Shown in pieces: positions 3,002 through 61,633 of a stretch of DNA of 64,000 bases. How positions within the stretch are numbered: the stretch's first letter is position 1; every line of letters starts with the position of its first letter. The notes under the pieces were generated by a model. It saw only the letters and a list, made by a program, of their open reading frames with translations. It was not told the DNA's origin and made no database searches. The position numbers and the translations under genes are program-made. The stretch is from Candidatus Micrarchaeia archaeon. GTDB taxonomy: Archaea > Micrarchaeota > Micrarchaeia > CABMEP01. The DNA is taken from positions 6,673 to 70,672 of the forward strand of contig JAVZXS010000002.1 in NCBI GenBank assembly GCA_038886535.1. The letters run 5' to 3'.

Positions 3002-3526
3002 ATGGATAGAAAGAATAAATCTAGTAAAATTCAATTTTTGCCAGTTTACATTTCATTCATGTTTTTATGGAATCTAATCATATTCTTAACTCCTATTCTT
3101 TCTGTCAATAACTTGGAAATCTCTAAATCGCTATTTACATTTTTCTCATTTTTTTGCCACCAGTTATTTGAAAGGTCAATTTGTATGAATAATAATATGG
3201 AAATAGGAAACTGCTCAGTATCAAACGGGTTTATATATCAATTTCCAGTCTGCGCAAGAGATATAGGTTTTTATTTCGGAATGCTAATTGGCGGAATTGT
3301 TATGTTAATTGCACGCAGAGGAGAAGAAAAAATGCCTAATTTATTATTCCTTTTGATTTTCATCTTACCTATGGCAATAGACGGTATTACACAATTATTG
3401 TATCTTAGGGAGAGCACGAATGAATTAAGGCTGATCACAGGATTTCTTGCAGGCATGATCATTCCATTTTATTTGATGCCTGTTCTAAATAGATTTTCTT
3501 TTAGGGGTGTTAAGAGTGAAAGATAA
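3002..3526 (+). CDS. DUF2085-family membrane protein
   Basis: CHQLFERS followed by FPVCARDIGFYFG, plus 4 TM helices. This matches the DUF2085 signature CHQ..RS...CaRC.G. Confidence 0.6.
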   Translation: MDRKNKSSKIQFLPVYISFMFLWNLIIFLTPILSVNNLEISKSLFTFFSFFCHQLFERSICMNNNMEIGNCSVSNGFIYQFPVCARDIGFYFGMLIGGIVMLIARRGEEKMPNLLFLLIFILPMAIDGITQLLYLRESTNELRLITGFLAGMIIPFYLMPVLNRFSFRGVKSER

Positions 3527-7565: not shown

Positions 7566-8519
7566 ATGGCCTTTGAAATACTTTTACAATTATTCTTTCT
7601 TATAATTGCATTAATCGCATTGGCATTCTCCTCTAAAATAGCATTAGAGAGCGCAGAGAAGCTTGCTTCATATTTTGGATTGAGTCAACTTGCTATCGGC
7701 TTTATCTTAATCTCTGTCCTTACAAGCCTTCCTGAATTCTCAATTGCAATTCTATCATCTTCATCACACAACAATAATCTTTCTCTTGGAGATTTGTTGG
7801 GATCTAATGTTACGAATATTGCATTAATATTTGGATTATTTCTATTTCTGTCAATGAAACCTATAAGGCCTAATAAAAAGAGAATGAATGAAATTCTGCT
7901 TTATATTTTCATTTCATTAATACCTGTTGTTCTGTTTATAGATGGGTCTCTTTCATTTACTGACGGTTTGATACTGTTGGTACTTTATCTATTTTTCATT
8001 AAAAACATATTAGATTCAAGAGAAAAAACATTCACAATAAGTAATCTAGATAAGAAGAGTGCAGCAAGAGAATTCTTAGTATTGCTTGCAGCAATATTTA
8101 TTGTAATAATTAGTGCAGAATTTGTAATTAAAATAGCTGTAGAAATAGCGGAAATGTTGAATCTGTTCCAATCATTTATCGGAGCTACATTAATTGCATT
8201 CAACACTTCGTTACCTGAACTTGCCCTTACTCTTGTTGCAGTTAGAAAAAGAGTCTCAGACATTGCTATAGGTAATTTGATAGGAAGCAACGTCATTAAT
8301 ATCACTCTTCTTTTAGGTTTGAATGTTTTGATAAACCCATTTTTACCTAATATAGAAGTTGCTAGCGCAATCTTTGCTTTCATCTTTATAACTTCAGGAT
8401 ATCTCGTTTACAAGCTTCTTTTGCATAATTCATTGGAGAAGAAAGATGGTATTGTTTTACTTGCCGCTTATGTTTTATATATAATCGTTCTCTCATCAGT
8501 TCAAATAGCCCTCCATTAG
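7566..8519 (+). CDS. Ca2+/Na+ (CaCA, YrbG-type) antiporter
   Basis: Two alpha-repeat motifs, GDLLGSNVTNIALIFG and GNLIGSNVINITLLLG. About 10 TM helices. The ATG at 7566 is preferred to the TTG at 7512. Confidence 0.8.
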   Translation: MAFEILLQLFFLIIALIALAFSSKIALESAEKLASYFGLSQLAIGFILISVLTSLPEFSIAILSSSSHNNNLSLGDLLGSNVTNIALIFGLFLFLSMKPIRPNKKRMNEILLYIFISLIPVVLFIDGSLSFTDGLILLVLYLFFIKNILDSREKTFTISNLDKKSAAREFLVLLAAIFIVIISAEFVIKIAVEIAEMLNLFQSFIGATLIAFNTSLPELALTLVAVRKRVSDIAIGNLIGSNVINITLLLGLNVLINPFLPNIEVASAIFAFIFITSGYLVYKLLLHNSLEKKDGIVLLAAYVLYIIVLSSVQIALH

Positions 8520-8532
8520 TGCAAGTGAGTAT

Positions 8533-9972
8533 ATGAAAAATCATATCAGGCAGAGAAGACATACCATGAACCTTTCAGTGATTGAAGGGAGCTTATATTC
8601 ATGCATGGTTGGATTCGCACAGTATTTTATAACACCATACGCAGTATTCTTAGGTATGTCTAATTTTATGATTGGTTTACTGCGTTCAATTTCATCTCTT
8701 GTTTCTGCATTAGGCTTTTATCTAAGCCCCTTACTTATGCAGTTTGAAGAAAAACGAAAAGAAACAATATCTAAGTTTGTTTCTTATCAAGCTTATACAA
8801 TAATATTATTTCTTTTAATTCCATTATTTCCATTTGATAAATCAATTTTATTCATCATTTTTTATTCACTGTTTCTTTTCTTTGGTTCACTAATATCTCC
8901 AATTTGGACTTCACTAATGAAAGATGTTGTAATAAAGAAAGAGCGAGGTTCATATTTTGGAATGAGAAACAAACTTGCAGGACTTTTTGAAGTTGGTTCT
9001 TCTTTAGTTGCAGGTGCGATACTTAGCTATTTTACAAACAATGTTTATTTAGGATTTATAACAATCTTTATCTTCGCCTTTATATTTAGAATTTTTTCAT
9101 CAAATTTAATACTTAAACATTGGGACCCAGTATCAAGATCAAAAAGACCAATGCATAAGTCTCAAGGTTTTAATTTAAAATTACTTATCCTAAATGATGC
9201 ATATCTAAATAATCTGATTCTTCTTGGAGGAGGAATGCTTTTTGCTACAAATATTGCAGGTCCATTCTTTGCGGTTTTCATGCTTAAAAATTTGAATTTT
9301 AGTTATCTTGATTTTACAATTGCAACAATTGCATCAACCTTAGCAACACTTCTATCTCAACCATATTGGGGTAAATTAATAGATAAATATGGAACGCGTC
9401 CAGTTATATTCTCCACTTCAATCTTAATTCCACTCATTCCATTACTATGGGTTCCAGCTACTAATCTTTCTTATGTAATTATTATCCAGCTTTATTCTGG
9501 CCTTGTTTGGGCAGGTTTTGATTTAGCTGTGTTTAACATGTTATTGAAGATATCTCCCAGAAATAAGACTCAATTGTATTCTGCATCATACAATGGTGCA
9601 ATATCGATATTAACATTTCTAGGCATGTTAACTGGTAGTTTTATCATATTGGCTTTGGATTATGTTGATATAAAGATACTTAATAGTATTCAGATAATCT
9701 TTATTATTTCTGGTTTATTGAGATTTATTGTTGCAGGGATTGCGCTTCCAAGAATAACCAAGCATATGCAGGTTAATTCTTTAGAGTTTTTCGTGAAAAC
9801 AATAACAGTATATCCAATTAAAGGTGTGTTATCAGAAGTTGAACAGGGAACAATATTCGCTGAACAAATAGTGGTTTCAACTTCAAGATTAATATTTGAT
9901 CCAATCGCTTCCTTCAAAAGAATTTCAAAAGGTTTTAAAGCAACCATAAGTTTAATAAGCCCAAAGAGATAA
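8533..9972 (+). CDS. MFS-type transporter
   Basis: About 12 TM helices in a 6+6 layout with a central basic loop. No specific substrate signature. Confidence 0.6.
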   Translation: MKNHIRQRRHTMNLSVIEGSLYSCMVGFAQYFITPYAVFLGMSNFMIGLLRSISSLVSALGFYLSPLLMQFEEKRKETISKFVSYQAYTIILFLLIPLFPFDKSILFIIFYSLFLFFGSLISPIWTSLMKDVVIKKERGSYFGMRNKLAGLFEVGSSLVAGAILSYFTNNVYLGFITIFIFAFIFRIFSSNLILKHWDPVSRSKRPMHKSQGFNLKLLILNDAYLNNLILLGGGMLFATNIAGPFFAVFMLKNLNFSYLDFTIATIASTLATLLSQPYWGKLIDKYGTRPVIFSTSILIPLIPLLWVPATNLSYVIIIQLYSGLVWAGFDLAVFNMLLKISPRNKTQLYSASYNGAISILTFLGMLTGSFIILALDYVDIKILNSIQIIFIISGLLRFIVAGIALPRITKHMQVNSLEFFVKTITVYPIKGVLSEVEQGTIFAEQIVVSTSRLIFDPIASFKRISKGFKATISLISPKR

Positions 9973-42389: not shown

Positions 42390-42704
42390 ATGGAAAACAT
42401 AAAGGAAACTTTGAAGATTTTGAAGGCATTGTCTGATGAAACAAGGTTAAGAATAGTTTATTTTCTTTTAGATGGCGAAAAATGCGTCTGTGAGATTTTC
42501 CCTCACGTAAAGAGGAGCCAATCAACTGTTTCAATACAGCTGTCAAAACTTGAAAATTTGGGAATTGTTGAATCAGAAAGGAAAGGAAAACAAGTTTTCT
42601 ACAGGATAAAAGACTATCGTGTTTGCGATATTTTCAAGGCGTTGGGTTTTGAGAGAGGGAAAGTATTGAAGAAAGCCTGTTGCATGAAAAGAGGTGAACA
42701 ATAA
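42390..42704 (+). CDS. ArsR/SmtB-family transcriptional regulator
   Basis: LKALSDETRLRIVYFLLDGEKCVCEI, then QSTVSIQLSKLENLGIV wHTH. The ATG at 42390 is preferred to 42357, which lies inside the repeat/promoter. Confidence 0.8.
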   Translation: MENIKETLKILKALSDETRLRIVYFLLDGEKCVCEIFPHVKRSQSTVSIQLSKLENLGIVESERKGKQVFYRIKDYRVCDIFKALGFERGKVLKKACCMKRGEQ

Positions 42705-43810
42705 TGAGGTCTAAATTTTTAGTGCTTGCACTTTTGTTTCTTCTGAGCATCTCTTTCGCTCAGAGTGTTTGTGTTTATTTCTTTTATGGTGACGGATGTC
42801 CACACTGCGCCAAGGTTGAACCATTCATCAATCAAATGAAACAAAAATATCCACAGTTAGAGTTGCACCAGTTTGAGATTTACAATAATAGAAGTAATGC
42901 ACAATTGTTGAATTCTTTTTTTGATTCATACAACATTTCTCAGAAAGAAAGAGGAGTTCCGATTGTTTTTGTTTCAAACTTTTATATTATGGGGGACAGA
43001 CCAATCATTGATAATCTTGAAGAAAAAATTCAAAGTTTAATTGAAACTGGGAGCGAGTGTCCTTCTCCTGAGATCACTGGAGTTTCTGGAATTGCTGAAA
43101 AGGAAGCATTGTCTGGGTTAACACTTGATCTGCCGCAGCTATTTTTTACTGCGACAGGAGCCGCTCTTGTTGATTCGATCAATCCATGTGCGATTGCAGT
43201 GCTCTTGATCCTGTTAACTGCCCTCCTTACAGCTGGAGAAAAGACAAGAGCACTTAAGGCAGGACTTGCATTCATTCTTTCAATCTATATAACTTATTTC
43301 TTATTTGGTCTTGGCCTGTTTCATGCCTTGCAGATAAGCGGACTCTCCTATTGGTTCTACCAAATACTTGGATTCCTTGCAATAGTAATTGGTGTACTTA
43401 ACATAAAAGATTATTTCTGGTATGGTGGGGGAGGATTCGTGATGGAGATTCCTCGTTCTTGGAGGCCTACGCTCAAAAAACTACTGCAAAGTGTCACAAG
43501 TCCCTCTGGAGCATTTCTGATGGGCTTTGTGGTTTGCCTGTTTGAATTGCCATGCACTGGAGGACCATACTTATTTATGACGGGCCTCCTTGCACAGCAG
43601 GTTACTCAAGCAATAGCAATTCCTATCCTTCTCTATTACAATCTTCTGTTTGTTTTGCCTTTGATTGGAATTATTATCTTGCTTTACTTTGGAATGTCAA
43701 AAGTTGAAGAAATGGAGGAATGGAGAACTAGGAATATTCGTCTACTTCATCTCGTGGCAGGTCTTATCATGGTCGCATTAGGTGGTGCAGTTATTCTTAG
43801 GGTTATATGA
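42704..43810 (+). CDS. Fusion of an exported thioredoxin-fold domain (CPHC) with a CcdA/DsbD-like transmembrane thiol-disulfide transporter
   Basis: Signal peptide. FFYGDGCPHCAKVEP. TM core with SINPCAIAVLL and ELPCTGGPY (the two conserved CcdA Cys). TAATG overlap with arsR. Confidence 0.7.
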   Translation: MRSKFLVLALLFLLSISFAQSVCVYFFYGDGCPHCAKVEPFINQMKQKYPQLELHQFEIYNNRSNAQLLNSFFDSYNISQKERGVPIVFVSNFYIMGDRPIIDNLEEKIQSLIETGSECPSPEITGVSGIAEKEALSGLTLDLPQLFFTATGAALVDSINPCAIAVLLILLTALLTAGEKTRALKAGLAFILSIYITYFLFGLGLFHALQISGLSYWFYQILGFLAIVIGVLNIKDYFWYGGGGFVMEIPRSWRPTLKKLLQSVTSPSGAFLMGFVVCLFELPCTGGPYLFMTGLLAQQVTQAIAIPILLYYNLLFVLPLIGIIILLYFGMSKVEEMEEWRTRNIRLLHLVAGLIMVALGGAVILRVI

Positions 43811-45202: not shown

Positions 45203-46159
45203 TCAATCTCTTATTCCTTCAGGTGTGACTTTGAACACACATTCTCCTTCGGGCATGTTCGGCGAGTCTATAAGTCTTGCGATTCTTTTTTCTTCTTTTC
45301 CTCTTCTTACATATACCCTATATGTTGATTGATGCGCTAGAACGTGCCCTCCAATAGGAGTTGTAGGATCGCCGAATAGGATTGCAGGATTATCCATTAC
45401 TTGGTTTGTAATGTAAACTGCAACATTGTATGTATCAGCAAGTCTTTGGAGTGCACGGATATGTCTGTTTAATTTTTGCTGCCTTTCTCCAAGAGCGCCC
45501 CTTCCTACATAATCTGATCTAAATTGAGAGGTCAAAGAATCAACTATAATTAGTTTTATGTTCTCTTTCTTTATCAGTTCGTCAGCCTTTTCAATTAGAA
45601 GAATTTGATGATCTGAATTCATAGCTCTTGCAACATGGATATTCTTCAAGACCTGATCCGGATCCATTCCTTGTGCTTCTGCTATCTGTCTTATTCTTTC
45701 TGGTCTGAATGTTGCTTCAGAATCTATGAAAAGTACTTTTCCGCCAAGCCCTCCTTGACCTTCAGGCTTTTGTACATTTACTGCAAGTTGGAATCCAACT
45801 TGTGTTTTCCCTGAACCAAATTTACCGAAGAATTCTGTTATCGCTTGCGTTTCTACTCCTCCTCCAAGCAATTCATCAAGTTCCTTTGATCCTGTGCTAA
45901 TCTTTGCAATTTGTTTTCTTCTCTCGTAAACCTGATCTCCTGTTTCAAATCCAATTTCCGTTGCTTTCTTTGCAGCTTCTATTGCTTTTTTCGCATTGTC
46001 AACACTAATTTCACCTATCTCTGCAAGTTCATGTGGAGACGCAGTTGCAATCTTTTCAATAGTATCATATCCCTCTGCTCTGAGCTTTTCAGCAGTTGCA
46101 GGCCCTATACCTGGAAGATCTTCTAATTCTTTTACATACTCACTTTTTTCCTTTGCCAT
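45203..46159 (-). CDS. radA: DNA repair and recombination protein RadA
   Basis: N-terminal Hh[16 protein letters not shown]. Walker [10 protein letters not shown]. Walker B LIIVDS. No intein. Confidence 0.95.
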
Positions 46160-46376
46160 ACTATCACCAATAATCCACTACAATAAATCCCGATTATTAT
46201 ATATTAGTATTTTGAAAACTAATTTATTTATAATTAACTTCTTTTTTATATTAACTTACATATTTATATATCTCATCTAACCTCATTTCCAGTGATTCTA
46301 GAAGGAGTGTTCTTTTAATAAATATTTTTTCATTTTTAATATTATTTTTTTTAGTTTTATTAATATAATTATCATC

Positions 46377-47333
46377 TCATTCATTTGCAAAATCGATAAT
46401 TCTTTCTAATGATTCTTGTGGTGTTTCAATTGTATTAAGGAAGATGATGTCACATTTCTGAAGTAATCTTTCATATGCGCTTTTTCTTACTTCAGTCTTC
46501 CAGCTATTTTTTTGTAGCCAGTGTGGATTAAAGAAATCATTATTTACTAAATGCTTTAGTGCTTCTTTTACAGTTAATCTTGTAACAACAGGCTTATTCA
46601 TCTCTCTCCTTAGGATTATGAATTTATTTATATCAACAGAATCAGCTATTTTTTCTTTCCCTACAACCTTTGAAAGATTAAGTATAGCTCTTTCTTTATT
46701 ATCTATCTTTGCAAACCTCATTATATCTTTATATTCTTTCCAACTTTTGCTGAGGTCGGCTCTAATATATGTATTTTTTTCACTTCTGTATCCCATTGCT
46801 GTTCCATTTATGAACTTAAAATAAAACCAATCATCAGCTACTATCTTTGTATTTTGTTTTGTCAAAAGCCCATAGCTTAATGTTGTTTTTCCAGTTCCTG
46901 AAGGGCCTAGGATGCAAGTTCCATTCCCATTTACATTTAGTAATGCTGCATGGGCTGAAAATATATTATGGTTATCCTCTAATACATCTCCTATAAGTGC
47001 TAATGCAACTGATTTTAGCCATCCATAGTAATCATTATTTTTGAAGAAAGCAGTTCTTGATTTAGGGTCATATTGTACAGTTGGAATTCCTTTAGCAGCA
47101 GATCCAGATTCGATTGATAATAGCTTTGCATGCGATCTTATTCCTTCATCAATGAAAAACCAGTTTTCATCCCATTGGTCTTCCCATTCTTCGCTATCAG
47201 AATAGAAATGAAGGCATGCTCCACTTATGTTTGCCTTTCTTTCAAAAATTATGGAAGGAATGTACTTTTTGTATATTCTTTCCTTTTCATCTATGCTTAT
47301 TATTTTTTTAACATATTTAGATTTAGTAGACAT
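46377..47333 (-). CDS. P-loop protein resembling the HPr-kinase C-terminal (HprK-related kinase) fold
   Basis: AALLNVNGNGTCILGPSGTGKTTLSYGLL...IVADDWFYF parallels HprK (G.G.LI.G.SG.GKS...L.......L..DD). Confidence 0.4.
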   Translation of the reverse strand: MSTKSKYVKKIISIDEKERIYKKYIPSIIFERKANISGACLHFYSDSEEWEDQWDENWFFIDEGIRSHAKLLSIESGSAAKGIPTVQYDPKSRTAFFKNNDYYGWLKSVALALIGDVLEDNHNIFSAHAALLNVNGNGTCILGPSGTGKTTLSYGLLTKQNTKIVADDWFYFKFINGTAMGYRSEKNTYIRADLSKSWKEYKDIMRFAKIDNKERAILNLSKVVGKEKIADSVDINKFIILRREMNKPVVTRLTVKEALKHLVNNDFFNPHWLQKNSWKTEVRKSAYERLLQKCDIIFLNTIETPQESLERIIDFANE

Positions 47334-47444: not shown

Positions 47445-47801
47445 ATGAAGAAATTAGGAGTATTGATGGCATTATTTCTTTTAGGAACATTGGTTTTTGC
47501 ACAGACCGGTTCATCAACAGAAGCAAGTACAAAGCTTAAATCCGTTCTTAGAACTGTTTGTGATCTTTCTGCAGGACTTTTAGGTCCAATAGCATTTGTA
47601 CTTATTGTTCTTGCAGGAGTAGTATATGCAGGCAGTCAATTCTTTGGAGCTGAAGCTAGAGCAACAGGTTCAAAATGGGCAATGACAATGATAACTGGAG
47701 CAATAGTAGCATTCTTGCTATGGATTATAGGTCCAATGATAATTTCTGCATTCGGTGGTGGCAGCTACCAGATCGGTTCAAGTGCATGCTCTGGTTTCTG
47801 A
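47445..47801 (+). CDS. VirB2/TrbC-like pilin paralog 1
   Basis: Sec signal peptide ending VFAQ. Mature part is a Ser/Thr-rich N-terminus, then helix 1 (LLGPIAFVLIVLAGVVYAG), the loop SQFFGAEARATGSKW, and helix 2 (AMTMITGAIVAFLLWIIGPMII). Exactly 2 Cys in the mature region. Confidence 0.6.
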   Translation: MKKLGVLMALFLLGTLVFAQTGSSTEASTKLKSVLRTVCDLSAGLLGPIAFVLIVLAGVVYAGSQFFGAEARATGSKWAMTMITGAIVAFLLWIIGPMIISAFGGGSYQIGSSACSGF

Positions 47802-47832
47802 TTGATAATATTTTTTCTTTTAGTTGATTGCC

Positions 47833-48237
47833 ATGTCAGATGCAAGGACTAGATTTAAAGGTCATTCAAAGAAATCAAAAAGCAATTCAACCTTATATTG
47901 GCTAGTCTTTGCTGTTTCTTTTATTTTTATTATTTCATTTTCGTTTGCACAGACCATCGGTTCTACACAGGCGTCAGACAAACTTAAAAAAACACTTTGC
48001 GATCTTTACAAAGATCTTAATTCAGTAATTCCAACTGTCGCATTTGTTCTCTTTGTTCTTGCAGGAGTTGCATATGCAGGAGGTCAATTCTTTGGAGCAG
48101 AAACAAGAGCAAAGTCAATATCCTGGTCAATGTCAATGGTGACTGGTGCAGTAGTTGGATTATTAATTGTTCAGGTTGCGTCCGTTCTTATTTCAAATCT
48201 TTCAGGTTATCAATTAAAGGACATTTGTCCTGTTTAA
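47833..48237 (+). CDS. VirB2/TrbC-like pilin paralog 2, with a long basic n-region on the signal peptide
   Basis: Signal ends ...SFSFAQ. Core is VIPTVAFVLFVLAGVAYAGGQFFGAETRAKSISWSMSMVTGAVVGLLIV. 2 Cys (TLCDL, DICPV). Confidence 0.6.
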   Translation: MSDARTRFKGHSKKSKSNSTLYWLVFAVSFIFIISFSFAQTIGSTQASDKLKKTLCDLYKDLNSVIPTVAFVLFVLAGVAYAGGQFFGAETRAKSISWSMSMVTGAVVGLLIVQVASVLISNLSGYQLKDICPV

Positions 48238-48312
48238 ATAGTCAATATTTAAATTTTAAATATCTAACATCTTTTTAAATTTTTATTTATAATTTGTTAG
48301 TAAGGTGTTTAA

Positions 48313-48672
48313 ATGAAAATCAATATCTTAATGTCAATAGCCTTTATGTTATTATTGTTTTCGTTCTCATTTGCACAGGGAACTTCTGATGTTACAGAAA
48401 GGTTAGTAGTGGGATTGAATGATGTATGTGTTCAATTGACACAGATTCTTCCTATAATTGCTATTGTATTGTTTGTACTTGCAGCAGTAATTTATGGAAT
48501 TGGTCATATATTTGGTGCAGAGATGAAATCAAAGGCCACAGGCTGGGCTACTTCTATGGTTGTTGGAGCAGTTATCTCGCTTCTAATATTCTTGTTGGCA
48601 AGACCTATTCTAGGCATTTTTATTCCAGAGATATCCACCTCTGACTTCTGCACAGAAAGATTCTATCCATAA
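48313..48672 (+). CDS. VirB2/TrbC-like pilin paralog 3
   Basis: Signal ends ...SFSFAQ. Core is ILPIIAIVLFVLAAVIYGIGHIFGAEMKSKATGWATSMVVGAVISLLIF. 2 Cys (DVCVQ, DFCTE). Confidence 0.6.
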   Translation: MKINILMSIAFMLLLFSFSFAQGTSDVTERLVVGLNDVCVQLTQILPIIAIVLFVLAAVIYGIGHIFGAEMKSKATGWATSMVVGAVISLLIFLLARPILGIFIPEISTSDFCTERFYP

Positions 48673-48769: not shown

Positions 48770-49591
48770 ATGGCACTCGGATTTACTACTAGACAAATGG
48801 CTTATGGGGCGATAGGAGTTTCCATATTAGTTTTCTTAATAATGGCAACACTTCCAGGGGGAAGTACTTTACAATTCATCATGGCAGGTTTGTCTTTATT
48901 TACTGCAGTATTGTCATTTATTCTTTGGAAATACGGATATTGGATGGTTCCATTCATAACAAAGAGGCTTAACATAATTGAAGTACATGATGGGCAATGG
49001 GAAACCACTCCAGCACAGGATGCAATAGTTAAAAAGATAGGAGATGAATATTATGCATCTGTTTTTCTTCACATTAAGATGTACAAATCTACAACAGAAA
49101 GATCTCAAGAAGAAAACATGGTTTTCATAGATTCATTTGAAAGAGCAATTGCAAACATAAAATATCCAGTAAAGATTGCAACACTTCTTTATGCTAAGGA
49201 CATAGCAAAATACAGAGAGGATATTGAGACAAAGAAATATGAAGCGCAATTAAAGCTTCAGAGAGAAAGAGAAAAATCAGAGCCCGATGTTTTGGCATTA
49301 GATAGATTGGAAAAGGAAGTAGCAATGTATGAGGCAGAGTTAAACAGAATCATTTCTGGAGAAAGGCCAATGGGATTGATTTCATATGCAATGACAACTG
49401 GGGTTGGAGTTACAAAAGATGCAGCAGTTGCAGTAGCAAAGAATCAGGCAGCTGAAATAAAGACATTGCTTGCAAACGCCCTTAATGTAGAGGTATCATA
49501 TTTGTATGGAGAAGATATGATGAAGTGTTATGATCTTGAACACATGGTTCCTCCAACAATAAAGGCATTGAAAGATTTTGTTGAGGCATAG
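48770..49591 (+). CDS. VirB3-like TM hairpin fused to a VirB4 N-terminal-like domain (hypothesis)
   Basis: N-terminus LGFTTRQMAYGAIGV plus two TM helices recalls the VirB3/TrbD entry motif (..TRP....GV). It is followed by a ~200-aa soluble domain with a coiled segment. Sits immediately upstream of the VirB4-type P-loop ORF. Confidence 0.4.
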   Translation: MALGFTTRQMAYGAIGVSILVFLIMATLPGGSTLQFIMAGLSLFTAVLSFILWKYGYWMVPFITKRLNIIEVHDGQWETTPAQDAIVKKIGDEYYASVFLHIKMYKSTTERSQEENMVFIDSFERAIANIKYPVKIATLLYAKDIAKYREDIETKKYEAQLKLQREREKSEPDVLALDRLEKEVAMYEAELNRIISGERPMGLISYAMTTGVGVTKDAAVAVAKNQAAEIKTLLANALNVEVSYLYGEDMMKCYDLEHMVPPTIKALKDFVEA

Positions 49592-49622: not shown

Positions 49623-51194
49623 ATGGGTGATTTAAAGATAAACGATGTTCAGAATACGGATATAGGAAGAAGAACAATCATTGTCAGCCCACCAGAGCCA
49701 CCCGCAGAATATCTAATGGGCGATCCTAAGGATTCAATATATTTAGGAAGAACAGCTGTTTTTAATGTTCCTTTCTATTGGAATTTCAAGAGATTAACAA
49801 ATCCACATATCGCAATAACAGGAATCACTGGTTCTGGTAAATCCTATTTGATAAAGACATTTCTCCTCAGGGCAGCACTAGTATGGAATGCAAATGCAAT
49901 CATCATCGACTGGGCTGGAGAATATAAGGCATGGGTTAAACAAGTCAATGGGGTTGTAGTAGCTCTTGGAAGAGGTTCTTATCTAAATCTTTTAGACCTT
50001 GGAGGCATGAAGCCTTCAGATAGGATAAAACAAGTAATAAGATCACTTGAAATACTTACTGATATAGGTCAATATCCAGAACAAAGGAGACTTATAGAAG
50101 AAGCGATAGAAAAGGCATATTTGAATGCAGGATTTAAGCTTTCAGAAAAGGATCAGAGAGATGCATTAGGCAATCCTCTAAGGCCGCCTACTCTTAAAGA
50201 CGTTCAAAAAATTCTACAACAAATGCTTGAGACAGGGACATATGAGTTTCCTGCAGAACTTCAGAATGCTATTTATAAGATAAAGAAGTTTACTCTTGAA
50301 GGTGATGATTATTTTGCAGAACAGTCTACTATAGATCTTGACAAACTTCTTACATCTGGTCTTGTTGCAATCGATCTCTCGGGATTGCCAGACGAAACTT
50401 TCCGTGCGCTTGCAGCTCTTACCATTCTTCAATTCATAAAAGAAAAGATGAGAATGGAAGGATGGAAGCCAGAGAAGGGAATAAAACTTTTTGTTGTGCT
50501 GGACGAAGCTTGGAAAATTTCGAAGGATGAGAATAGCGATGCAGTTATGATTGTAAGAGAAGGAAGAAAGTATCAATTTGCACTGATAGTTGCATCACAG
50601 ACTCCAACAGATATAAGTGAGGTAATATTCAGCAATGTAGGGACTGTAATTATGTTAAGATTAAAGTTTGAAAAGTATCTCGATTATTTGCAAAATTCAT
50701 TGAGGTTTAGTAATTATATAAGACAACAGATTTTGGGATTTGGAGTTGGGCAAGCTGCGATTTCTATGGCTTATGAGCAAACCACTCCATTCAGCGAAAC
50801 ATTCATACTTAAGAAGATTGACGGTGAAGAGCCAATAGTTGATTACTTCATCGATATTCTATCTGTGCTGACAGAAGCACAAAGAAGGGATGAGACAATG
50901 CCAAAGAGTTTTTCAATGGAAAGAACAGCATTCAAGAAGAGATTGAGAGAAATGGGACTTAGCGATCAAAGAGTAGAGGAGATATCTACACTAATTGAAA
51001 AGAAGGCAAAGCACATCGATGCAATAGAATTCGTGATAGAGCTTGAAAGAAGCGGAGTAAACAGGAAAACAATTACAATGTTCTTCAGAGAGCTTGGAAT
51101 TGATGATAGTACTATTATAAACATATTTACAAGAGCAGATCAGAAAAAGACAGGAGCAGGAGAAAGAGAATTAACTCAAATAACATTAGAATGA
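49623..51194 (+). CDS. VirB4/TrbE/CedB-type (DUF87-like) secretion ATPase, C-terminal P-loop domain, plus a helical C-terminal extension
   Basis: Walker A NPHIAITGITGSGKSYL. IIIDWAGEY. SYLNLLDL. PTLKDVQKIL. Walker B LFVVLDEAWK. REGRKYQFALIVASQTPTDI. About 110 aa of extra helical repeats at the C-terminus. Confidence 0.75.
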   Translation: MGDLKINDVQNTDIGRRTIIVSPPEPPAEYLMGDPKDSIYLGRTAVFNVPFYWNFKRLTNPHIAITGITGSGKSYLIKTFLLRAALVWNANAIIIDWAGEYKAWVKQVNGVVVALGRGSYLNLLDLGGMKPSDRIKQVIRSLEILTDIGQYPEQRRLIEEAIEKAYLNAGFKLSEKDQRDALGNPLRPPTLKDVQKILQQMLETGTYEFPAELQNAIYKIKKFTLEGDDYFAEQSTIDLDKLLTSGLVAIDLSGLPDETFRALAALTILQFIKEKMRMEGWKPEKGIKLFVVLDEAWKISKDENSDAVMIVREGRKYQFALIVASQTPTDISEVIFSNVGTVIMLRLKFEKYLDYLQNSLRFSNYIRQQILGFGVGQAAISMAYEQTTPFSETFILKKIDGEEPIVDYFIDILSVLTEAQRRDETMPKSFSMERTAFKKRLREMGLSDQRVEEISTLIEKKAKHIDAIEFVIELERSGVNRKTITMFFRELGIDDSTIINIFTRADQKKTGAGERELTQITLE

Positions 51195-51249
51195 TGACCT
51201 AAACATATTCAGATTGTATATTCATGTAGAAGGATTTAGAGGGATTTTG

Positions 51250-51696
51250 ATGGCTAAAGTATGTATAATTGGAAAAGAAGAAGTCAAGGGAGGAAATTAC
51301 AAGAAAGTCAAGGAAGATATAGTTATCTCATCCATAAGGAATCTTAAGAGATTCTTTAAGATCGCTGCAGAAAACGAGCTTGTAGTGTGTGAGAATCATC
51401 TCGGAGAGGCAATTAAAAGAAGAAAGGAATTTGAATCATCAATAGTAAAGATAGTTGCTGTGGTTGCAGTGATAGCGGTTATAGCAATCATACTAGCTTT
51501 ACTCAATAACTCTCTCAATTTCATCCCAGCTACAATTTCAATGATCATCTTACTATTCATACTATTGATGTTTGTTTCTTTGTTTAGGTATTTCCCTGCA
51601 ATAGAAAATGCAGAAATAGTTTCGAATGAGAAAGAGAAAAAGCAAAAAGAGACTACAAAGCAATTTAAAGAAAAGCAAAAAGTAAAGAGGAGATAA
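51250..51696 (+). CDS. Small membrane protein (cytoplasmic N-domain, 2 TM helices, Lys-rich tail)
   Basis: ATG at 51250 after GAGGGA. TM helices IVAVVAVIAVIAIILALL and ISMIILLFILLMFVSLF. Confidence 0.5.
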   Translation: MAKVCIIGKEEVKGGNYKKVKEDIVISSIRNLKRFFKIAAENELVVCENHLGEAIKRRKEFESSIVKIVAVVAVIAVIAIILALLNNSLNFIPATISMIILLFILLMFVSLFRYFPAIENAEIVSNEKEKKQKETTKQFKEKQKVKRR

Positions 51697-51697
51697 G

Positions 51698-52444
51698 ATG
51701 GTTTCATTTGACAAGAAAGATCAACAGGTTTCATCAAGAGAACCATTCATCGAGGGATTTAGGATAGAAGCAAAGATGCTCAAAGGAACTCAGGAAATAA
51801 TAGATGCACTTTCGCCATTGCAGTTCTTAGACATAGTAGAAACAAAAACAGGAATAGCAGCAATTAATGTCGAGAGAAGAGACATTCAAAAGAATCCATA
51901 TCTCTTTTCCATAATCTATCTCAATCCAGATTGTATAGAGATAATATACAGCTATAACCCAGATGAGAGCCCAAAGAAAAGAAGATTAGAAATACTTCGC
52001 TACTTTTTGAATATTGTAACTCTTCTTGAGAATGTTTATTTCATTAATCACAAACAGCTTTATCAGGTTGTTGACAACTTCATGTCACGTCTTTTGGAAT
52101 ATACCTCTTCTACCTATGAGGAGCTTTTCTCAAAATATGATTCAGTAAAGGAAGAGTGCGACAGGATAAAGAAGCAGCTTGCAGAGGTAACAGCTGCAAA
52201 TGAAAGCCTCAGGAAATCAAACATGGAGCTGAAGGAGCAGCAGAATCAATTGATGCTTAGGATAAAGGAACTCGAGATGGTTTCAGATGATGTTCTCATC
52301 TCAAGAATACAGACATGGTTGGATGAACATAATTATGAGATAAACATTTCTGATTTCGCTAGAATAAATAAGGTCAGTGAGCAAAGAGTAGAAGAGATAC
52401 TTAATAAAATGGTAAGAGAAGGATATTTAATACAGAGAGAATAA
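51698..52444 (+). CDS. Cytoplasmic protein with an N-domain, coiled coil and C-terminal winged-HTH-like domain
   Basis: Heptad-rich segment (KEECDRIKKQLAEVTAANESLRKSNMELKEQQNQLMLRIKELE), then ISDFARINKVSEQRVEEILNKMVREGYLIQ. The start abuts the previous stop. Confidence 0.5.
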   Translation: MVSFDKKDQQVSSREPFIEGFRIEAKMLKGTQEIIDALSPLQFLDIVETKTGIAAINVERRDIQKNPYLFSIIYLNPDCIEIIYSYNPDESPKKRRLEILRYFLNIVTLLENVYFINHKQLYQVVDNFMSRLLEYTSSTYEELFSKYDSVKEECDRIKKQLAEVTAANESLRKSNMELKEQQNQLMLRIKELEMVSDDVLISRIQTWLDEHNYEINISDFARINKVSEQRVEEILNKMVREGYLIQRE

Positions 52445-52492
52445 CAAATGCTATGTTGATGATTTCTTAATATTCTAATAAAGAGGATAGGT

Positions 52493-55114
52493 ATGCAAGA
52501 TGAGAAAAATCAAACAAATCAAAGAAAATTTGCAAAGGTACATAGGGCAGTATACAAGTTTAATATTAGAAGGATGTTCATACCTATCAAGAGATTTATA
52601 AAAAAGACAAATGAATTCACCCCACAGATGATCTTGGATTCATTATCATCTTTATTCAAGCCAAAGGAGAAGTATGGTGAGAAAAAAGAACTCAAGCCAA
52701 TGAAACCAGTAAAGGCAATGCCTTCTCCTATAATGAATTTCATAATTGTATTCCTTTTATGCCTGTTGGCGATCGGAGGATATTTTCTTTTCATTTATTA
52801 CACTGGTCCTTCAGAGCCTGTGACTCCTCCGGTAACAGAAATACCAAAACCAACTCTTTCAGTAAATGTATTGAGCTCAGGCTATCTTGATTCTTCTTTT
52901 GACAAGACAAGATGGTTTGCCTTAGTTGAAATTTCTTCCCAGAATGCTACAAACATAAGCTTGGATATGGTTATTCAGCAGAATCCCATCCCAAATGATG
53001 TTTATATATTAAGAGTTCCAAACTACCAATTTGCATCAAACTATCCTCAGTTCTATTCTGTTCTGAAGAACAAGCTTGAGAAGAAAGGATTGTATCTTTC
53101 AGAAATAACTATAGATGAACTTGTCTCTTTGCCATCCACAAGAAAAATAATTTTAGTGGTTCCTTCAGGCTATCTCCCAGCTGTATTTGTTGGGGAGGAA
53201 TATGCAAATTTCACTCTAAAAAGCTTTGTTGAAAATGGAAATGTTGTAATCTACATAGGTTACAAACCAACAGACAGCATTCTTTATTCCAATTCTCCAA
53301 ACCCGCAGCCATTATCTCTAGATAAGATAGCAAGCTGGCAGCTTTCATTTGATCAAGCTACAGATCAGCCATCATTCTTCTCGTTCAGGAATCCATTGTA
53401 TTCTGTAAAGGCAGTAGGAAGTACATCAACCCGTCCAGCAGTAACAGGAGAACCTGGCGGTTTCTCTGTTAAGTGGGGTGGAGATGGGTTTGCATATTTT
53501 ATACCAACCACAATAGATTTCTGGTGGCAATTTTCAGGTGAGAAGTCTGCAGAGGAGCTTGCAGATGCGATAGTAAATGGAAAATGGGGCTATGGTCTTT
53601 CAAGAATACAGAAAACCATTCCTGTGAATGGTTCCATAAACAAGCAGATAATCATATTCAGCTCGCAATTTAAATTCCCGGACAGCACAAGGGTTTCAAG
53701 ATCTTATGGGAAGCTTTATGTTCAATCCCTGAATCAGGTAGAGAACCTAACTGAAATCAATGGTATTTCTCTTCCTGTCAGATTTCCAACCAGGCCGAAT
53801 GGCATTTTGATGCATGATGATGTAGCATTAAATTCAATCATAACTGGAAATCCTCTTGAGATAAAGTACTCTTTAAACGAAAATACAACTGAATTAAGAC
53901 AGCTTTATTTATCTGCCATATCAGAAAACAATGAAGAAATTTTATTCACGCCTATAACTGCTGCTCCAGTACCTCTTAAGCTTTCAAATGCAGTATATAG
54001 ATTTGATAACAGGCTTCCGCAAGGCAATTATATATTAAGAATAACAGATGACAGGCGAAACGTTTATGCACAATCATATCTTTCAATGGCATCTTTCAAT
54101 ATCGAACCTTACATCACAGATTTCATATCTGGCAATTATATCTTTAATGTATATTTCTCATCAACAGGTGAGCAATACACCTCTGATTTGAAGAATGTGG
54201 TTGTCTCAGTTGATGATGGAGACAAAAAGACACTCGAGGTAAGACAGGGTAGAATTTTATATAACGCCACTCCTATTACTGTGCCTGGTGTTCATATATT
54301 TAAATTTGAATTCGGGCCGGATACAATTATTCTTCCAGTAACTTACACAAGACCTGTTTCTATGTTTGAGAGGCCAGAAAACATAGCAATGGGAATAATC
54401 GCAATACTTCTCTTTGCAATCGGGTATTTGATTTCAAGACCAGAGGCAGTAAAATATTCAATAGATGTTCCAGATTTCCCACCCTTACAATCAATAGCAG
54501 TTCCAATAAAAAGAGAAAAAATATTGGACATGTTTGATTCGATAAATGCTGATCTTAAATGGAAATATACTCCACTTACAATCAATGATCTAAAGATGGG
54601 ATTCAAGAAGATAATGTTCAGAGGAAAACCTCTTCTTGTTGGCGATTACAATCTTGAAATGGTTCTTGACAAGCTTAAGGAAGAGGGATATGTTGTCCAG
54701 TCAATGGATTATTATGGATTAAAAAGATGGGAGAAGGAAACAAGAAAATCAATTTATTACCTTGCTCTTGTTAGGGCTCTTAGGGATGTGTTTGTAACAG
54801 AGGGAATTCCATTCCTTCAATTTGGACAGAGGGGAGATGCAGATACAGTACTAAGCTACGGTGGAGAAAAGGTATATATTCACATTTATGAATCTGATGC
54901 AGTTATAAAGAAGGCAATTCAAACTTCCTCTTTCGGAAGAACAATTATTGTTTTTGAGAATGAAACAGTGATGAATGATTTCCTATCCAGAATTCATACT
55001 CCGAGCCAGCAAAACGTAGTATTCAAATTGCTCCTTGACAACGGAAAGATAAGCGTTGCTCCAATAACAAGTTTCATGGATGTTCTGACAAAGAAAAAAA
55101 TATTTACTTACTAA
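52493..55114 (+). CDS. 873-aa bitopic membrane protein: short basic N-tail, TM, ~520-aa extracellular domain, TM, ~230-aa cytoplasmic domain
   Basis: TM helices IMNFIIVFLLCLLAIGGYFLFIYY and IAMGIIAILLFAIGYLI. The C-domain contains a wHTH-like segment, LEMVLDKLKEEGYVVQS. No family recognised. Confidence 0.6.
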   Translation: MQDEKNQTNQRKFAKVHRAVYKFNIRRMFIPIKRFIKKTNEFTPQMILDSLSSLFKPKEKYGEKKELKPMKPVKAMPSPIMNFIIVFLLCLLAIGGYFLFIYYTGPSEPVTPPVTEIPKPTLSVNVLSSGYLDSSFDKTRWFALVEISSQNATNISLDMVIQQNPIPNDVYILRVPNYQFASNYPQFYSVLKNKLEKKGLYLSEITIDELVSLPSTRKIILVVPSGYLPAVFVGEEYANFTLKSFVENGNVVIYIGYKPTDSILYSNSPNPQPLSLDKIASWQLSFDQATDQPSFFSFRNPLYSVKAVGSTSTRPAVTGEPGGFSVKWGGDGFAYFIPTTIDFWWQFSGEKSAEELADAIVNGKWGYGLSRIQKTIPVNGSINKQIIIFSSQFKFPDSTRVSRSYGKLYVQSLNQVENLTEINGISLPVRFPTRPNGILMHDDVALNSIITGNPLEIKYSLNENTTELRQLYLSAISENNEEILFTPITAAPVPLKLSNAVYRFDNRLPQGNYILRITDDRRNVYAQSYLSMASFNIEPYITDFISGNYIFNVYFSSTGEQYTSDLKNVVVSVDDGDKKTLEVRQGRILYNATPITVPGVHIFKFEFGPDTIILPVTYTRPVSMFERPENIAMGIIAILLFAIGYLISRPEAVKYSIDVPDFPPLQSIAVPIKREKILDMFDSINADLKWKYTPLTINDLKMGFKKIMFRGKPLLVGDYNLEMVLDKLKEEGYVVQSMDYYGLKRWEKETRKSIYYLALVRALRDVFVTEGIPFLQFGQRGDADTVLSYGGEKVYIHIYESDAVIKKAIQTSSFGRTIIVFENETVMNDFLSRIHTPSQQNVVFKLLLDNGKISVAPITSFMDVLTKKKIFTY

Positions 55115-59828: not shown

Positions 59829-60656
59829 TCAGCCGAATACGTATCCTACTATTCCCATAAAGGTGTATAATGGTTCAAGTGTTAATGGGAATATCAATAT
59901 TCCATTCTTTGTTGCCTTTATGTCTCCTATAACATCGGATTTGACAGTAAGCTCAACATCATATGTATGCTTGAGTCTTTCACTTGAGATTGATTTTACT
60001 ATAATAGTTGGCTTGTATTCCTTTTCCTCGTTTACTGCAATCTCATAGAATGTGTTTACAGTTTGTCCTGCTGCCACATGTATGCTCTTTTTCATATTCC
60101 ATGCAGGTACTCCTTCAGAATATATTTCAAAAACATCATTCGCAGCTCCTTTGTTCTCTATTTTTATAGGATATCTTGCAGGCTGGCCAACACCAGTTGT
60201 TATTCCAACTGTTGGCATGCCTGTTTTCATTACATCTCTGCTTATCTTCACTCTTCCGAAAAAAATTACTCTCCCAAGTCCTTGCTTTGCTTCACAAACT
60301 TCATTTTTATCTTCACATTCTGTAAGTATAAGCTTAACAATGTATGTTCCATCCGGAGCATTAGGGTCTGCTTTGATCGTAGCCCTCATGTTTTTTGCAT
60401 AAACCATGCTGTCGAATCCTTGCCATCCATTAGGCACTTCCAGTACACCCAGTACACCCCAGTTTGCTTCAAGTCCGCCCTTTCCTATGTCAGTACCTTT
60501 TACAGTAATTGCTAGTGTCTGACCTGGACCTATTGTTCCAAGGTCGACTGTTTCGCCTTCAGAAACAGTTGCAACAACTGGTTCAAGTATCTTTACAGAA
60601 GATGAAAACACTGCACCGATTAATAATAATGCAAACAGAATAGATACTTTCTTCAT
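59829..60656 (-). CDS. Secreted Ig-like (CARDB/NEW3-like) protein with a C-terminal TM anchor
   Basis: Signal peptide. PARYPIKIENKGAANDVFEIYSEGVPAWN resembles CARDB/NEW3 strands. Hydrophobic C-terminus. Confidence 0.45.
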   Translation of the reverse strand: MKKVSILFALLLIGAVFSSSVKILEPVVATVSEGETVDLGTIGPGQTLAITVKGTDIGKGGLEANWGVLGVLEVPNGWQGFDSMVYAKNMRATIKADPNAPDGTYIVKLILTECEDKNEVCEAKQGLGRVIFFGRVKISRDVMKTGMPTVGITTGVGQPARYPIKIENKGAANDVFEIYSEGVPAWNMKKSIHVAAGQTVNTFYEIAVNEEKEYKPTIIVKSISSERLKHTYDVELTVKSDVIGDIKATKNGILIFPLTLEPLYTFMGIVGYVFG

Positions 60657-60831: not shown

Positions 60832-61188
60832 ATGAGAAAATTATTTACTATTGTTTTTTTGTCATTAATTTTTAGTATAGTATTTGCACAGTCAACAACA
60901 TCCACTACAAGTTCGTCAAGTGAAAAAATTAAAGATGCTATTTGTGCAGTTTATGATTTATTAAATGGTTTGCTTCCAGTTATAGCATTTGTTCTCTTTG
61001 TTCTTGCTGGTGTTGCATATGCAGCAGGAAATTTCTTTGGAGCTGAGATGAGGGCAAAGGCAACAGGCTGGGCAATGAATATGATAACTGGAGCAATAAT
61101 TGCATTGATTTTGTCTGCAGTAGGCCCATCGATATTAAGTTATCTCTATCAAGGTGAAGGCAGTATAAATGCAGATTTATGTTCTTAA
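60832..61188 (+). CDS. VirB2/TrbC-like pilin paralog 4 (satellite copy)
   Basis: Signal ends ...SIVFAQ. Core is LLPVIAFVLFVLAGVAYAAGNFFGAEMRAKATGWAMNMITGAIIALIL, nearly identical to paralogs 1-3. 2 Cys (AICAV, DLCS). Confidence 0.6.
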   Translation: MRKLFTIVFLSLIFSIVFAQSTTSTTSSSSEKIKDAICAVYDLLNGLLPVIAFVLFVLAGVAYAAGNFFGAEMRAKATGWAMNMITGAIIALILSAVGPSILSYLYQGEGSINADLCS

Positions 61189-61213: not shown

Positions 61214-61633
61214 ATGGCATTTTCAAAGCAACAGGTAGGATATTTTGCATTCATCGCAGGACTTTTTGTAGCTGCATTTGTTGCAGTTGCATATCCAGCA
61301 TTAATGCCGATCCATGTTTACTCATTAGGACTTCTCGGTATAATAATAGGATTGCTTAACATAGAAGCAAGAGAGGTATGGCCATACATCCTAGCAGCAG
61401 TTGCATTTCTTGTTGCATCAACAACATTCATGCAGACTATTGATGCATTGCCTGTAGTAAATCTTCTTCTTGAAAGATTCCTTAATGCATTGATATACAT
61501 TGTAGGGCCAGGTGTATTTGTAGTCTCATTAAGAATAATATACGAGGCAGCAAAGTCAAGAGAATCTCTTCCACACCCATTGAAAGAAGAAAAAACTGTC
61601 ACAAAGAAAGCTGAAAAGAAAAGAAAAAGATAA
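61214..61633 (+). CDS. Small 4-TM membrane protein with a Lys-rich tail
   Basis: Hydrophobic helices throughout. Starts 25 nt after pilin paralog 4. Confidence 0.5.
   Translation: MAFSKQQVGYFAFIAGLFVAAFVAVAYPALMPIHVYSLGLLGIIIGLLNIEAREVWPYILAAVAFLVASTTFMQTIDALPVVNLLLERFLNALIYIVGPGVFVVSLRIIYEAAKSRESLPHPLKEEKTVTKKAEKKRKR

Follow-up and report, generated by a model that had tools for sequence, protein, structure and literature searches.

Four pilin genes and their products

The window analysed here, a stretch of 64,000 nucleotides from contig JAVZXS010000002.1 of a Candidatus Micrarchaeia archaeon, encodes four small proteins (A, B, C, and D) whose sequences identify them as pilins of the VirB2/TrbC type, belonging to a minimal module that resembles type IV secretion systems (T4SS) and the Ced system. 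Each of the four has exactly two cysteines, one in the first helix (α1) and one near the end of the C-terminal tail, and this pair is retained by almost all of their relatives. We propose that the two cysteines are probably joined in a disulfide bond that staples the tail to α1. The window (GC content ~34%) is part of an archaeal chromosome and carries radA, gatD/gatE, and archease. A, B, and C form a tandem cluster that is flanked by the housekeeping genes radA and gatD/gatE, with synteny that is kept across species, while D lies 12 kb away. The coordinates are given in Table 1.

Table 1. Pilin genes and other features of the window discussed in the text (positions are counted from the first nucleotide of the window; aa, amino acids; nt, nucleotides; TM, transmembrane; Trx, thioredoxin)
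Feature	Position	Strand	Description
Cys-rich repeat protein	238-1254	+	338 aa; lipobox-like LSGC after signal peptide; 48 Cys; ~12 repeats of a 4-Cys module (DUF5885)
Thioredoxin-fold protein	1829-2893	-	membrane-anchored; 10 Cys; CPYG at active-site position
DUF2085 membrane protein	3002-3526	+	4 Cys; divergent neighbour of 1829-2893
Trx::CcdA/DsbD-type fusion	42704-43810	+	exported; signal peptide ...SFAQ; active site CPHC
radA and HprK/PEPCK-like P-loop gene	45203-47333	-	directly upstream of A, divergent
Pilin A	47445-47801	+	118 aa; Cys39 (TVCDL, nt 47559-47561); Cys115 (SACSGF, nt 47787-47789)
Pilin B	47833-48237	+	134 aa from ATG 47833; Cys codons in TLCDL (nt 47998-48000) and DICPV (nt 48226-48228)
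Pilin C	48313-48672	+	119 aa; Cys39 (DVCVQ, nt 48427-48429); Cys113 (DFCTERFYP, nt 48649-48651)
273-aa protein	48770-49591	+	two N-terminal TM helices and a soluble domain
VirB4/CedB-like P-loop ATPase	49623-51194	+	523 aa; two genes downstream of the three-pilin array
Three genes	51214-55114	+	160-aa membrane protein; 248-aa coiled-coil protein; 873-aa protein with 2 TM helices and a large extracellular domain; synteny in L006-L014
Upstream neighbour of D	59829-60656	-	275 aa; secreted, C-terminally anchored; 2 Cys
Pilin D	60832-61188	+	118 aa; Cys38 (AICAV, nt 60943-60945); Cys117 (DLCS, nt 61180-61182)
Downstream neighbour of D	61214-61633	+	139 aa; 4 TM helices

The four precursors have no cysteines besides these two, and the sequences and positions given in the initial annotation stand for all four open reading frames (ORFs). 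The N-proximal cysteine lies 16-19 residues past the motif FAQ (11-20 had been reported), and 1-6 residues follow the C-terminal cysteine, which had been placed within the last 2-8 residues. Relative to the conserved proline that opens the first TM helix (TM1), the N-proximal cysteine occurs in two registers, either 8 residues before it (A and C) or 11 residues before it (B and D). The leader was originally thought to be cleaved at FAQ, but cleavage after FA is more likely because orthologs differ in the residue that follows (Q, A, E, or D) and because [VSI]-F-A fits the -3/-1 rule for signal peptidase. Counted from this site, the N-proximal cysteine is preceded by 17-20 residues. In A, the signal peptide is followed by a Ser/Thr-rich N-terminus, helix α1, TM1, a basic loop (GAEARATGSKW), TM2, and the tail.

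The start codon of B is likely to be the ATG at 47833 and not the TTG at 47824, where the mechanically called ORF begins, because the annotated homologs P0002 and P0003 begin with MSDARTR. The leader of B and of its orthologs is about 40 residues long and includes an extended basic n-region (MSDARTRFKGHSKKSKSNS...; window 47824-47960). This is reminiscent of TraA, VirB2, and TrbC, whose leaders are unusually long.

The initial annotation took these proteins to be VirB2/TrbC-type pilins, and profile searches agree. A and D score above the gathering cutoff of PF18895 (T4SS_pilin; 27.2 and 31.8 bits, with a cutoff of 26.6), and B scores above that of PF04956 (TrbC/VirB2; 28.7 bits, with a cutoff of 27.9) and also matches the NCBIfam model for the TrwL pilin (E = 8.5e-6). 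C is below the Pfam cutoffs (23.9 bits for PF04956 and 19.7 bits for the other pilin model) but matches the family profile of the four paralogs at 3e-43. A sequence-profile search of the PDB gave a single match, to the pilin TrwL of R388 (8s6h), which is weak (E = 0.012) and spans α1, TM1, and the start of TM2; the chains of CedA1, TedC, VirB2, and TraA were not found by this search.

AlphaFold2 (AF2) models of D, as the full-length and as the mature protein, consist of a helix (29-68), a turn, a second helix (71-105), and a terminal coil (106-118), with a pLDDT (predicted local distance difference test) of 78-79. The signal peptide ends in FA and the loop of the hairpin has the consensus GAE[AMT][RK].K...W. 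The loop is basic (GAEMRAKATGW), while the N-terminal segment and the tail are acidic or neutral. Because of these charges and the cleaved leader, both cysteines are predicted to lie outside the cell. In the solved VirB2-type pili, the extracytoplasmic side becomes the exterior of the pilus (PMC9905601, PMC12037004). The distribution of charge and the AF2 secondary structure thus uphold the original view that both cysteines are on the same side, which is predicted to be the exterior. In the models of D, the α1 cysteine is 28 residues from the turn, the second helix has 35 residues, and 11 residues of coil lead to the tail cysteine. From these helix lengths, the tail would need to fold back by only about 10-15 Å to meet α1.

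Conservation and proposed pairing of the cysteines

A close search with the profile of the four paralogs returned 187 proteins. Among the best 120 of these, 93 have two cysteines, 17 have four, and 2 have six; where there are three, the extra cysteine is mostly in the leader. We also searched 1.84 billion cluster representatives exhaustively with a profile, which gave 608 clusters at E <= 1e-3, of which 378 reached E <= 1e-10. The best 150 clusters include 131 single-domain proteins, and of these, all 131 have one or more cysteines after TM2 and 130 have one or more within the 21 residues that precede TM1. When we aligned 333 domains, we found the tail cysteine (profile position 116) in 100% of them and the α1 cysteine at position 39 in 40% or at position 42 in 55% (together 95%). 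Because just 1.18% of the residues in the window's predicted proteome are cysteines, this conservation is far beyond chance. In an alignment of 40 divergent members, with a mean column identity of 18%, the sole invariant column is the tail cysteine. Homologs without one or the other cysteine are almost absent; had they been frequent, this would have refuted the idea by the initial annotation's own criterion. The annotation had also noted that the N-terminal segments diverge more than the helices. Exposed segments are indeed the more variable ones among orthologs, with identities of 25-62% in the Ser/Thr-rich N-terminus and 26-74% in the tail against 81-92% in TM1, the loop, and TM2, yet the cysteines are unchanged throughout. 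A second database search that was seeded with the 40 most divergent members returned only Micrarchaeota, to which all of the named relatives in these searches belong. The cysteine pair is characteristic of a subfamily of VirB2-like pilins that extends across Micrarchaeota.

The numbers of cysteines also follow a pattern. In the close set (n = 122), the counts on the N-terminal side and in the tail are one and one in 102 proteins, two and two in 10, three and one in 6, and four and two in 2, and just two proteins have an odd total. More broadly, the number of extracytoplasmic cysteines is even in 256 of 273 full-length members, and roughly half of the 17 odd cases are fragments or reflect boundary errors of the signal-peptide heuristic. 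(For the cytoplasmic ORFs of the window, the number of cysteines is even in 15 and odd in 21.) We then collapsed the relatives into state-homogeneous clusters (core identity of at least 80%) and found that having two or more cysteines in α1 goes with having two or more in the tail (odds ratio = 8.7, approximate Fisher p = 6e-5). The motifs involved are varied, with CxxxC in α1 and CxC in the tail, CC and Cx4C, CxC and Cx4C, Cx5C and Cx8C, three cysteines on either side, and other combinations, which implies that paired cysteines were gained repeatedly and independently. Furthermore, across the 333-domain alignment, the α1 cysteines lie only 7/8 residues (200 domains), 10/11 residues (145 domains), or 14/15 residues (21 domains) before the proline. 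These offsets correspond to i, i+3/4, and i+7, so the cysteines lie on one face of helix α1. Even numbers of cysteines and the joint gain of N-side and tail cysteines are the classic sequence signature of disulfides. The even parity and the joint gains thus bear out the expectation that the two cysteines covary, and we infer that a disulfide of one kind or the other, within or between subunits, very probably forms.

The conserved cysteines could instead have a role that does not involve a disulfide: they could bind a metal or a cofactor, carry a lipid or a thioether, or be recognized by an enzyme that processes the C-terminus. In most members the tail cysteine is 0-7 residues from the C-terminus, as in some processing signals, but across the family this distance varies from 0 to more than 40 residues. 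The N-side cysteine is 16-19 residues after FAQ and so is not at a lipobox position, and two thiols per subunit would make a poor metal site. Although a classical DsbA/DsbB pair was not found in the window, which would suit such a role, neither the even parity nor the paired gains would be expected of sites that are modified independently. We consider this explanation highly improbable.

If the cysteines do form a disulfide, then the bond is probably within a single subunit. We envision that the pilin is exported by the Sec system, that its leader is removed (probably after FA), and that it would then form a helical hairpin that spans the membrane, with its basic loop facing the cytoplasm and, later, the lumen of the pilus and with α1 and the Gly/Ser/Thr-rich C-terminal tail outside. 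The α1 cysteine, which would point outward and precedes the proline by 8 or 11 residues, would then bond with the cysteine near the end of the tail. This would fold the tail (11-27 residues) back onto α1 and clamp the open end of the hairpin. The clamp could stabilize the exposed part of the subunit and shield it from proteases while the pilin is still in the membrane and also once the VirB4/CedB-like ATPase has moved it into the pilus.

Another way to pair the cysteines is between subunits, with the α1 cysteine of one subunit bonded to the tail cysteine of its neighbour so that the filament is cross-linked. This accounts equally well for the parity and for the joint gain of N-side and tail cysteines; both cysteines are on the exterior of the pilus, where neighbours meet; and many of the source habitats are hot or acidic (the genomes include metagenome-assembled genomes (MAGs) from hot springs and sulfidic caves), so covalent filaments could be useful. 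Nevertheless, we consider cross-linking to be unlikely. First, some relatives are poly-pilins in which 4-7 hairpins are fused. These are polytopic membrane proteins and not filaments, yet they keep the cysteine pair in almost every repeat. Second, variants with one cysteine in one segment and three in the other imply that cysteines of the same segment pair locally, within one molecule. Third, the length of the tail and the register of the α1 cysteine show a weak negative correlation (Spearman -0.36), which also favours an intramolecular bond. Fourth, the second helix is modelled to end ~10 Å past the level of the α1 cysteine, and a flexible tail of 11-27 residues could reach the α1 of its own subunit. 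Finally, before assembly, while pilins are in the membrane pool, the nearest partner would be in the same molecule.

The window also encodes some proteins that bear on whether the exterior of the cell is oxidizing. The initial annotation pointed to two exported thiol-disulfide proteins. One of these is a candidate extracytoplasmic thiol-disulfide enzyme: the Trx::CcdA fusion has a CPHC active site and matches DsbD_2 from Pfam (E = 1e-4, 22.7 bits, with a gathering cutoff of 24.9) and SfLAP (E = 7e-9). The other, which had been described as DsbA-like, does have the thioredoxin fold (Pfam Thioredoxin_4, E = 2e-4, 21.9 bits, with a cutoff of 23.2; VSR_TRX, E = 6e-7) but has CPYG instead of a CxxC motif. 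Its divergent neighbour was considered as a possible DsbB or VKOR, but it is a DUF2085 membrane protein. The two might form a pair that oxidizes thiols. The 48-Cys repeat protein indicates that the organism makes heavy use of extracellular disulfides. Because the window encodes the exported CPHC protein, the secreted 48-Cys protein, and the 10-Cys thioredoxin-fold protein, an oxidizing exterior is plausible.

Gene neighbourhood, distribution, and unusual relatives

We scanned a single genome for each GTDB species and found 43 loci with relatives of the pilins (L001 to L043). All but two of these are labelled as Micrarchaeota (41 loci, including Anstonellales and Bilamarchaeaceae); one is labelled as Aenigmatarchaeota and one simply as "archaeon." The locus labelled Aenigmatarchaeota (L018, JAWCDI010000182.1) has two pilins, the 273-aa protein, and the ATPase, and it could represent a binning error or lateral transfer. 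The closest proteins in the databases are all from MAGs of "Candidatus Micrarchaeia/Micrarchaeota." Many of the 43 loci contain tandem arrays of 2-4 pilin genes. An origin of the cluster from a virus or a mobile element was considered and rejected, as a scan of IMG/VR did not turn up any relatives.

The paralogs A to D are 32-49% identical to each other. Orthologs of A are 71-99% identical to it in L007, L008, and L011-L014 and 56% identical in L009; orthologs of C are 66-96% identical, in conserved order. Because each of the four has orthologs in several species, with a fixed gene order, these are old and specialized paralogs rather than recent variants. Region-wise ratios of nonsynonymous to synonymous substitution rates (dN/dS, by the Nei-Gojobori method) are 0.04-0.07 for the core, 0.10-0.70 for the N-terminus with α1, and 0.13-0.36 for the tail; none of the ratios exceeds 1, and dS is near saturation. 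With a pooled ratio of nonsynonymous to synonymous differences (pN/pS) of 0.34, against 0.10 for the core, each of the exposed segments evolves about three times faster. The initial annotation raised the possibility of antigenic variation, but this is not supported: the four are old ortholog groups in fixed order, and dN/dS is below 1 in every region.

Downstream of the pilin array, the ATPase is most similar to CedB (NF041017, E = 3.7e-24), followed by the CD1110 VirB4-like family (5e-22), TraC (3e-15), and VirB4_CagE (2e-13); its Pfam matches are to DUF87/HerA, AAA_10, and the P-loop domain of TraG. All of the NCBIfam matches are far below the equivalog cutoffs (for CedB, 85.3 bits with a cutoff of 700). 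The ATPase is presumably the motor that extracts the pilins and assembles them. The 273-aa protein has no match of its own in the Pfam and NCBIfam scans, but in L006-L014, L018, and L024 it always directly precedes the ATPase, and we infer that it corresponds to the N-terminal half of a split VirB4/CedB, resembling VirB3 or the N-terminal domain of VirB4. The VirB4/CedB-like function is apparently split in this way in all of the relatives. (In L009, the ATPase is further divided into two ORFs at 8256-9851, because of either a frameshift or an assembly error.) The same scans gave no informative family match for the 160-aa, 248-aa, and 873-aa proteins that follow.

In L006-L014, nine loci whose flanks are complete, radA is followed by the HprK-like P-loop gene, pilins A to C, the 273-aa protein, the ATPase, and then these three genes, with radA and the P-loop gene directly upstream of the pilins and divergent. 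The adjacency of the pilins, the 273-aa protein, and the ATPase is additionally found in L018 and L024, for 11 related loci in all. The proximity to radA is suggestive of a role in DNA uptake and recombination. The radA ORF of L011 and L013 is longer (~2.5 kb, versus 0.96 kb), which an intein might explain. D and its two neighbours form a trio that is syntenic in L001-L003, L005, and L010; in L004, which is cut at the pilin, the upstream gene alone is present. The two flanking proteins have no family match and may be partners that are specific to D.

Some members of the family have unusual architectures. The poly-pilins P0121 (1071 aa), P0124 (632 aa), and P0129 (342 aa), which come from metagenomes, begin with a cysteine-containing extracellular N-terminal domain of 250-400 residues, which is followed by tandem hairpins with short Gly/Ser/Thr linkers: seven hairpins in P0121, after a domain of 400 residues, and four each in P0124 and P0129. 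Their loops have GQTRG and not GAEMRAK. Other relatives (P0190 from Ca. Anstonella stagnisolia, with 429 aa, and P0227, P0202, P0210, P0247, and P0249) have long and extremely Cys-rich C-terminal extensions, with up to 53 cysteines after TM2, and may represent a minor or tip pilin that carries an adhesin-like domain. A third kind (P0152, P0157, P0188, and P0259) has hairpins fused to a polytopic domain of ~330 residues and lacks the cysteine pair; these proteins cannot be free pilins. Fusions with two hairpins and no cysteine pair are found at 2300-3859 in L032, 5584-7113 in L039, 5773-7371 in L041, and 5752-7371 in L043, and also at 6883-12067 in L015. The paralogs with the polytopic domain occur in tandem, and in L015 they directly follow three free pilin genes; the window has no homolog of them. 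The poly-pilins and the polytopic fusion domain have no match in Pfam. The polytopic fusion may be the VirB6/CedA-like channel of the system.

Proteins with two hairpins fused to a 330-aa polytopic domain, or with 4-7 fused hairpins, cannot polymerize as free pilins, and this raises the question of whether the family might not form pili at all. Instead, its members could be membrane-resident hairpins, such as a channel or a stator of the VirB4-like machine, that are stabilized by a disulfide. However, the proteins that are fused to the polytopic domain are exactly those without the cysteine pair. The free forms have a cleavable leader, the size of a pilin, a basic loop that would line the lumen, and matches to the pilin families of Pfam. 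Also, the four conserved paralogs, arranged in an array, are paralleled by the pilin arrays of Patescibacteria (PMC12102498) and by the Ced/Ted pili (PMC9905601). It is improbable that these proteins are not subunits of a pilus.

Considering all of the evidence, we judge it fairly likely that A to D are VirB2/TrbC-type pilins of a chromosomal, minimal, Ced/Ted-like apparatus and that they are stapled by a disulfide between α1 and the tail. Several observations weigh against this explanation. At the level of structure, Foldseek searches of the PDB with both AF2 models of D gave no significant match (best E ~1.3-1.6) and returned generic helical hairpins but no pilin, although the fold is too simple to discriminate, and the confidence of these models in the tail is moderate (pLDDT 55-71). 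At the level of the cysteines, about 3% of the family members have an odd number of them, and the p-values for the joint gains are approximate because the sequences are phylogenetically related. As to the machinery for forming disulfides, DsbB or VKOR was not identified in the window, the protein at 1829-2893 does not have a CxxC, and proteins of the CcdA/DsbD type normally deliver reducing power, not oxidizing power. Finally, VirB4 is not recognizable beside the pilin arrays of two distant loci (L015 and L020), where the neighbours are aspartyl-tRNA synthetase, a glycosyltransferase, and proteins without known function.

Comparison with known pili

The Micrarchaeota pilins share several features with the classical pilins VirB2, TrbC, and TraA (PF04956; TrwL of R388, 8s6h): a Sec-type leader, a mature protein of ~95-100 residues with α1 and a hairpin of TM1, basic loop, and TM2, a VirB4-family ATPase nearby, and detectable sequence similarity. 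They differ in being archaeal and chromosomal, in having four conserved paralogs, and in having a longer and flexible C-terminal tail. Also, the classical pilins do not have a conserved pair of extracytoplasmic cysteines, and TrwL has no cysteine at the aligned position of α1.

Some of these pilins are stabilized by another kind of covalent bond. TrhA of R27 is cyclic, and cyclization is needed for biogenesis of the pilus and is proposed to add stability (PMC12037004). TrbC of RP4 is reported to be cyclic in a cryo-electron microscopy (cryo-EM) structure (PMC13434634). The initial annotation likened the staple to the cyclization of both TrbC and the T-pilin of Agrobacterium (VirB2), but cryo-EM structures show an uncyclized T-pilin (PMC9905601, PMC12037004), so TrbC and TrhA are the valid comparators. 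As in TrbC and TrhA, the proposed bond would covalently link the region of the N-terminal helix to the C-terminal end, on the exterior of the pilus. In TrbC and TrhA, however, a dedicated peptidase forms a peptide bond between residue 1 and the trimmed C-terminus, whereas in the Micrarchaeota pilins, the bond would be a side-chain disulfide between internal residues. Because the 17-20 residues at the N-terminus (after FA), which are Ser/Thr-rich, and the 1-6 residues at the C-terminus would stay free, outside of the loop, the staple is not a mimic of cyclization from terminus to terminus, as had been suggested. Cyclization of the backbone of the Micrarchaeota pilins would also be compatible with their sequences. 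We did not see a TraF-type or S26-family peptidase among the genes of the cluster that we examined, although we did not scan the window systematically for S26.

A disulfide in the exposed part of a pilin has a precedent elsewhere. In bacterial type IVa pilins, the exposed part of the subunit has a conserved C-terminal loop closed by the D-region disulfide, and this is required for the stability of the subunit and for assembly. Those pilins are unrelated to the hairpin pilins: they have an αβ-roll with an N-terminal helix, they depend on PilB/PilC and a prepilin peptidase, and both of their cysteines are C-terminal. The proposed staple would thus be analogous in function to the cyclization of TrbC and TrhA or to the D-region disulfide, but chemically different from them.

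Among archaeal systems, the closest parallels are the Ced and Ted pili, which serve for DNA import and are represented by CedA1 of Aeropyrum pernix and TedC of Pyrobaculum calidifontis. Like the module described here, these are chromosomal and not mobile, and they combine a VirB2-like pilin with an ATPase of the VirB4/HerA-FtsK type. But they are from Thermoproteota, while Micrarchaeota belong to DPANN, and CedB, although it is the best match of the ATPase, scores far below its cutoff. Neither the pilins nor the neighbouring proteins matched a model for a Ced/Ted pilin or channel at E <= 0.1, in a library that may not hold such models. The paper on the Ced/Ted pili does not mention cysteine or disulfides (PMC9905601).

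A further parallel is with Patescibacteria, which are ultrasmall episymbionts and have tandem arrays of 2-11 divergent genes for VirB2-like pilins, often near virB4 and without a relaxase (PMC12102498). The Micrarchaeota have a similar arrangement of divergent PF18895/PF04956 genes near virB4, with three genes in tandem and one that is distal in the window. The Patescibacterial systems differ in that they are bacterial and related to the monoderm MPF-FATA machinery and that no cysteine pair has been reported for them, and in Micrarchaeota, each paralog belongs to a stable group of orthologs.

The only pili mentioned in papers on Micrarchaeota genomes are those of type IV. In the full-text library that we searched, we did not find a description of VirB2-like pilins from Micrarchaeota or of a disulfide in any pilin of the VirB2 family. 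A disulfide clamp in a VirB2-like pilus has apparently not been described so far.

Putting these comparisons together, we can tentatively offer a broader scenario, which we regard as speculative and rather doubtful. Across Micrarchaeota, there would be a lineage-specific, chromosomal, minimal machine that resembles T4SS and Ced. Its four types of pilin would be locked by the α1-tail disulfide, which would be required for biogenesis and would be a convergent, enzyme-light alternative to the cyclization of TrbC and TrhA. The module would have been elaborated into poly-pilins and candidate tip adhesins that are rich in cysteine. The pilus would link these episymbionts to hosts of the Thermoplasmatales type, as a conduit or contact organelle that has long been sought, and it would serve for DNA uptake, in keeping with its location next to RadA, or for some other exchange. 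More generally, a conserved T4SS/Ced-like pilus module next to radA in Micrarchaeota bears on the exchange between DPANN symbionts and their hosts. Conjugative-type (VirB2) pili are central to horizontal gene transfer, and it is being actively studied how their small subunits survive harsh conditions and their removal from the membrane. The nearly invariant and covarying cysteine pair across an archaeal phylum suggests a third solution, a covalent one, beside the cyclized TrbC and TrhA and the uncyclized T-pilin.

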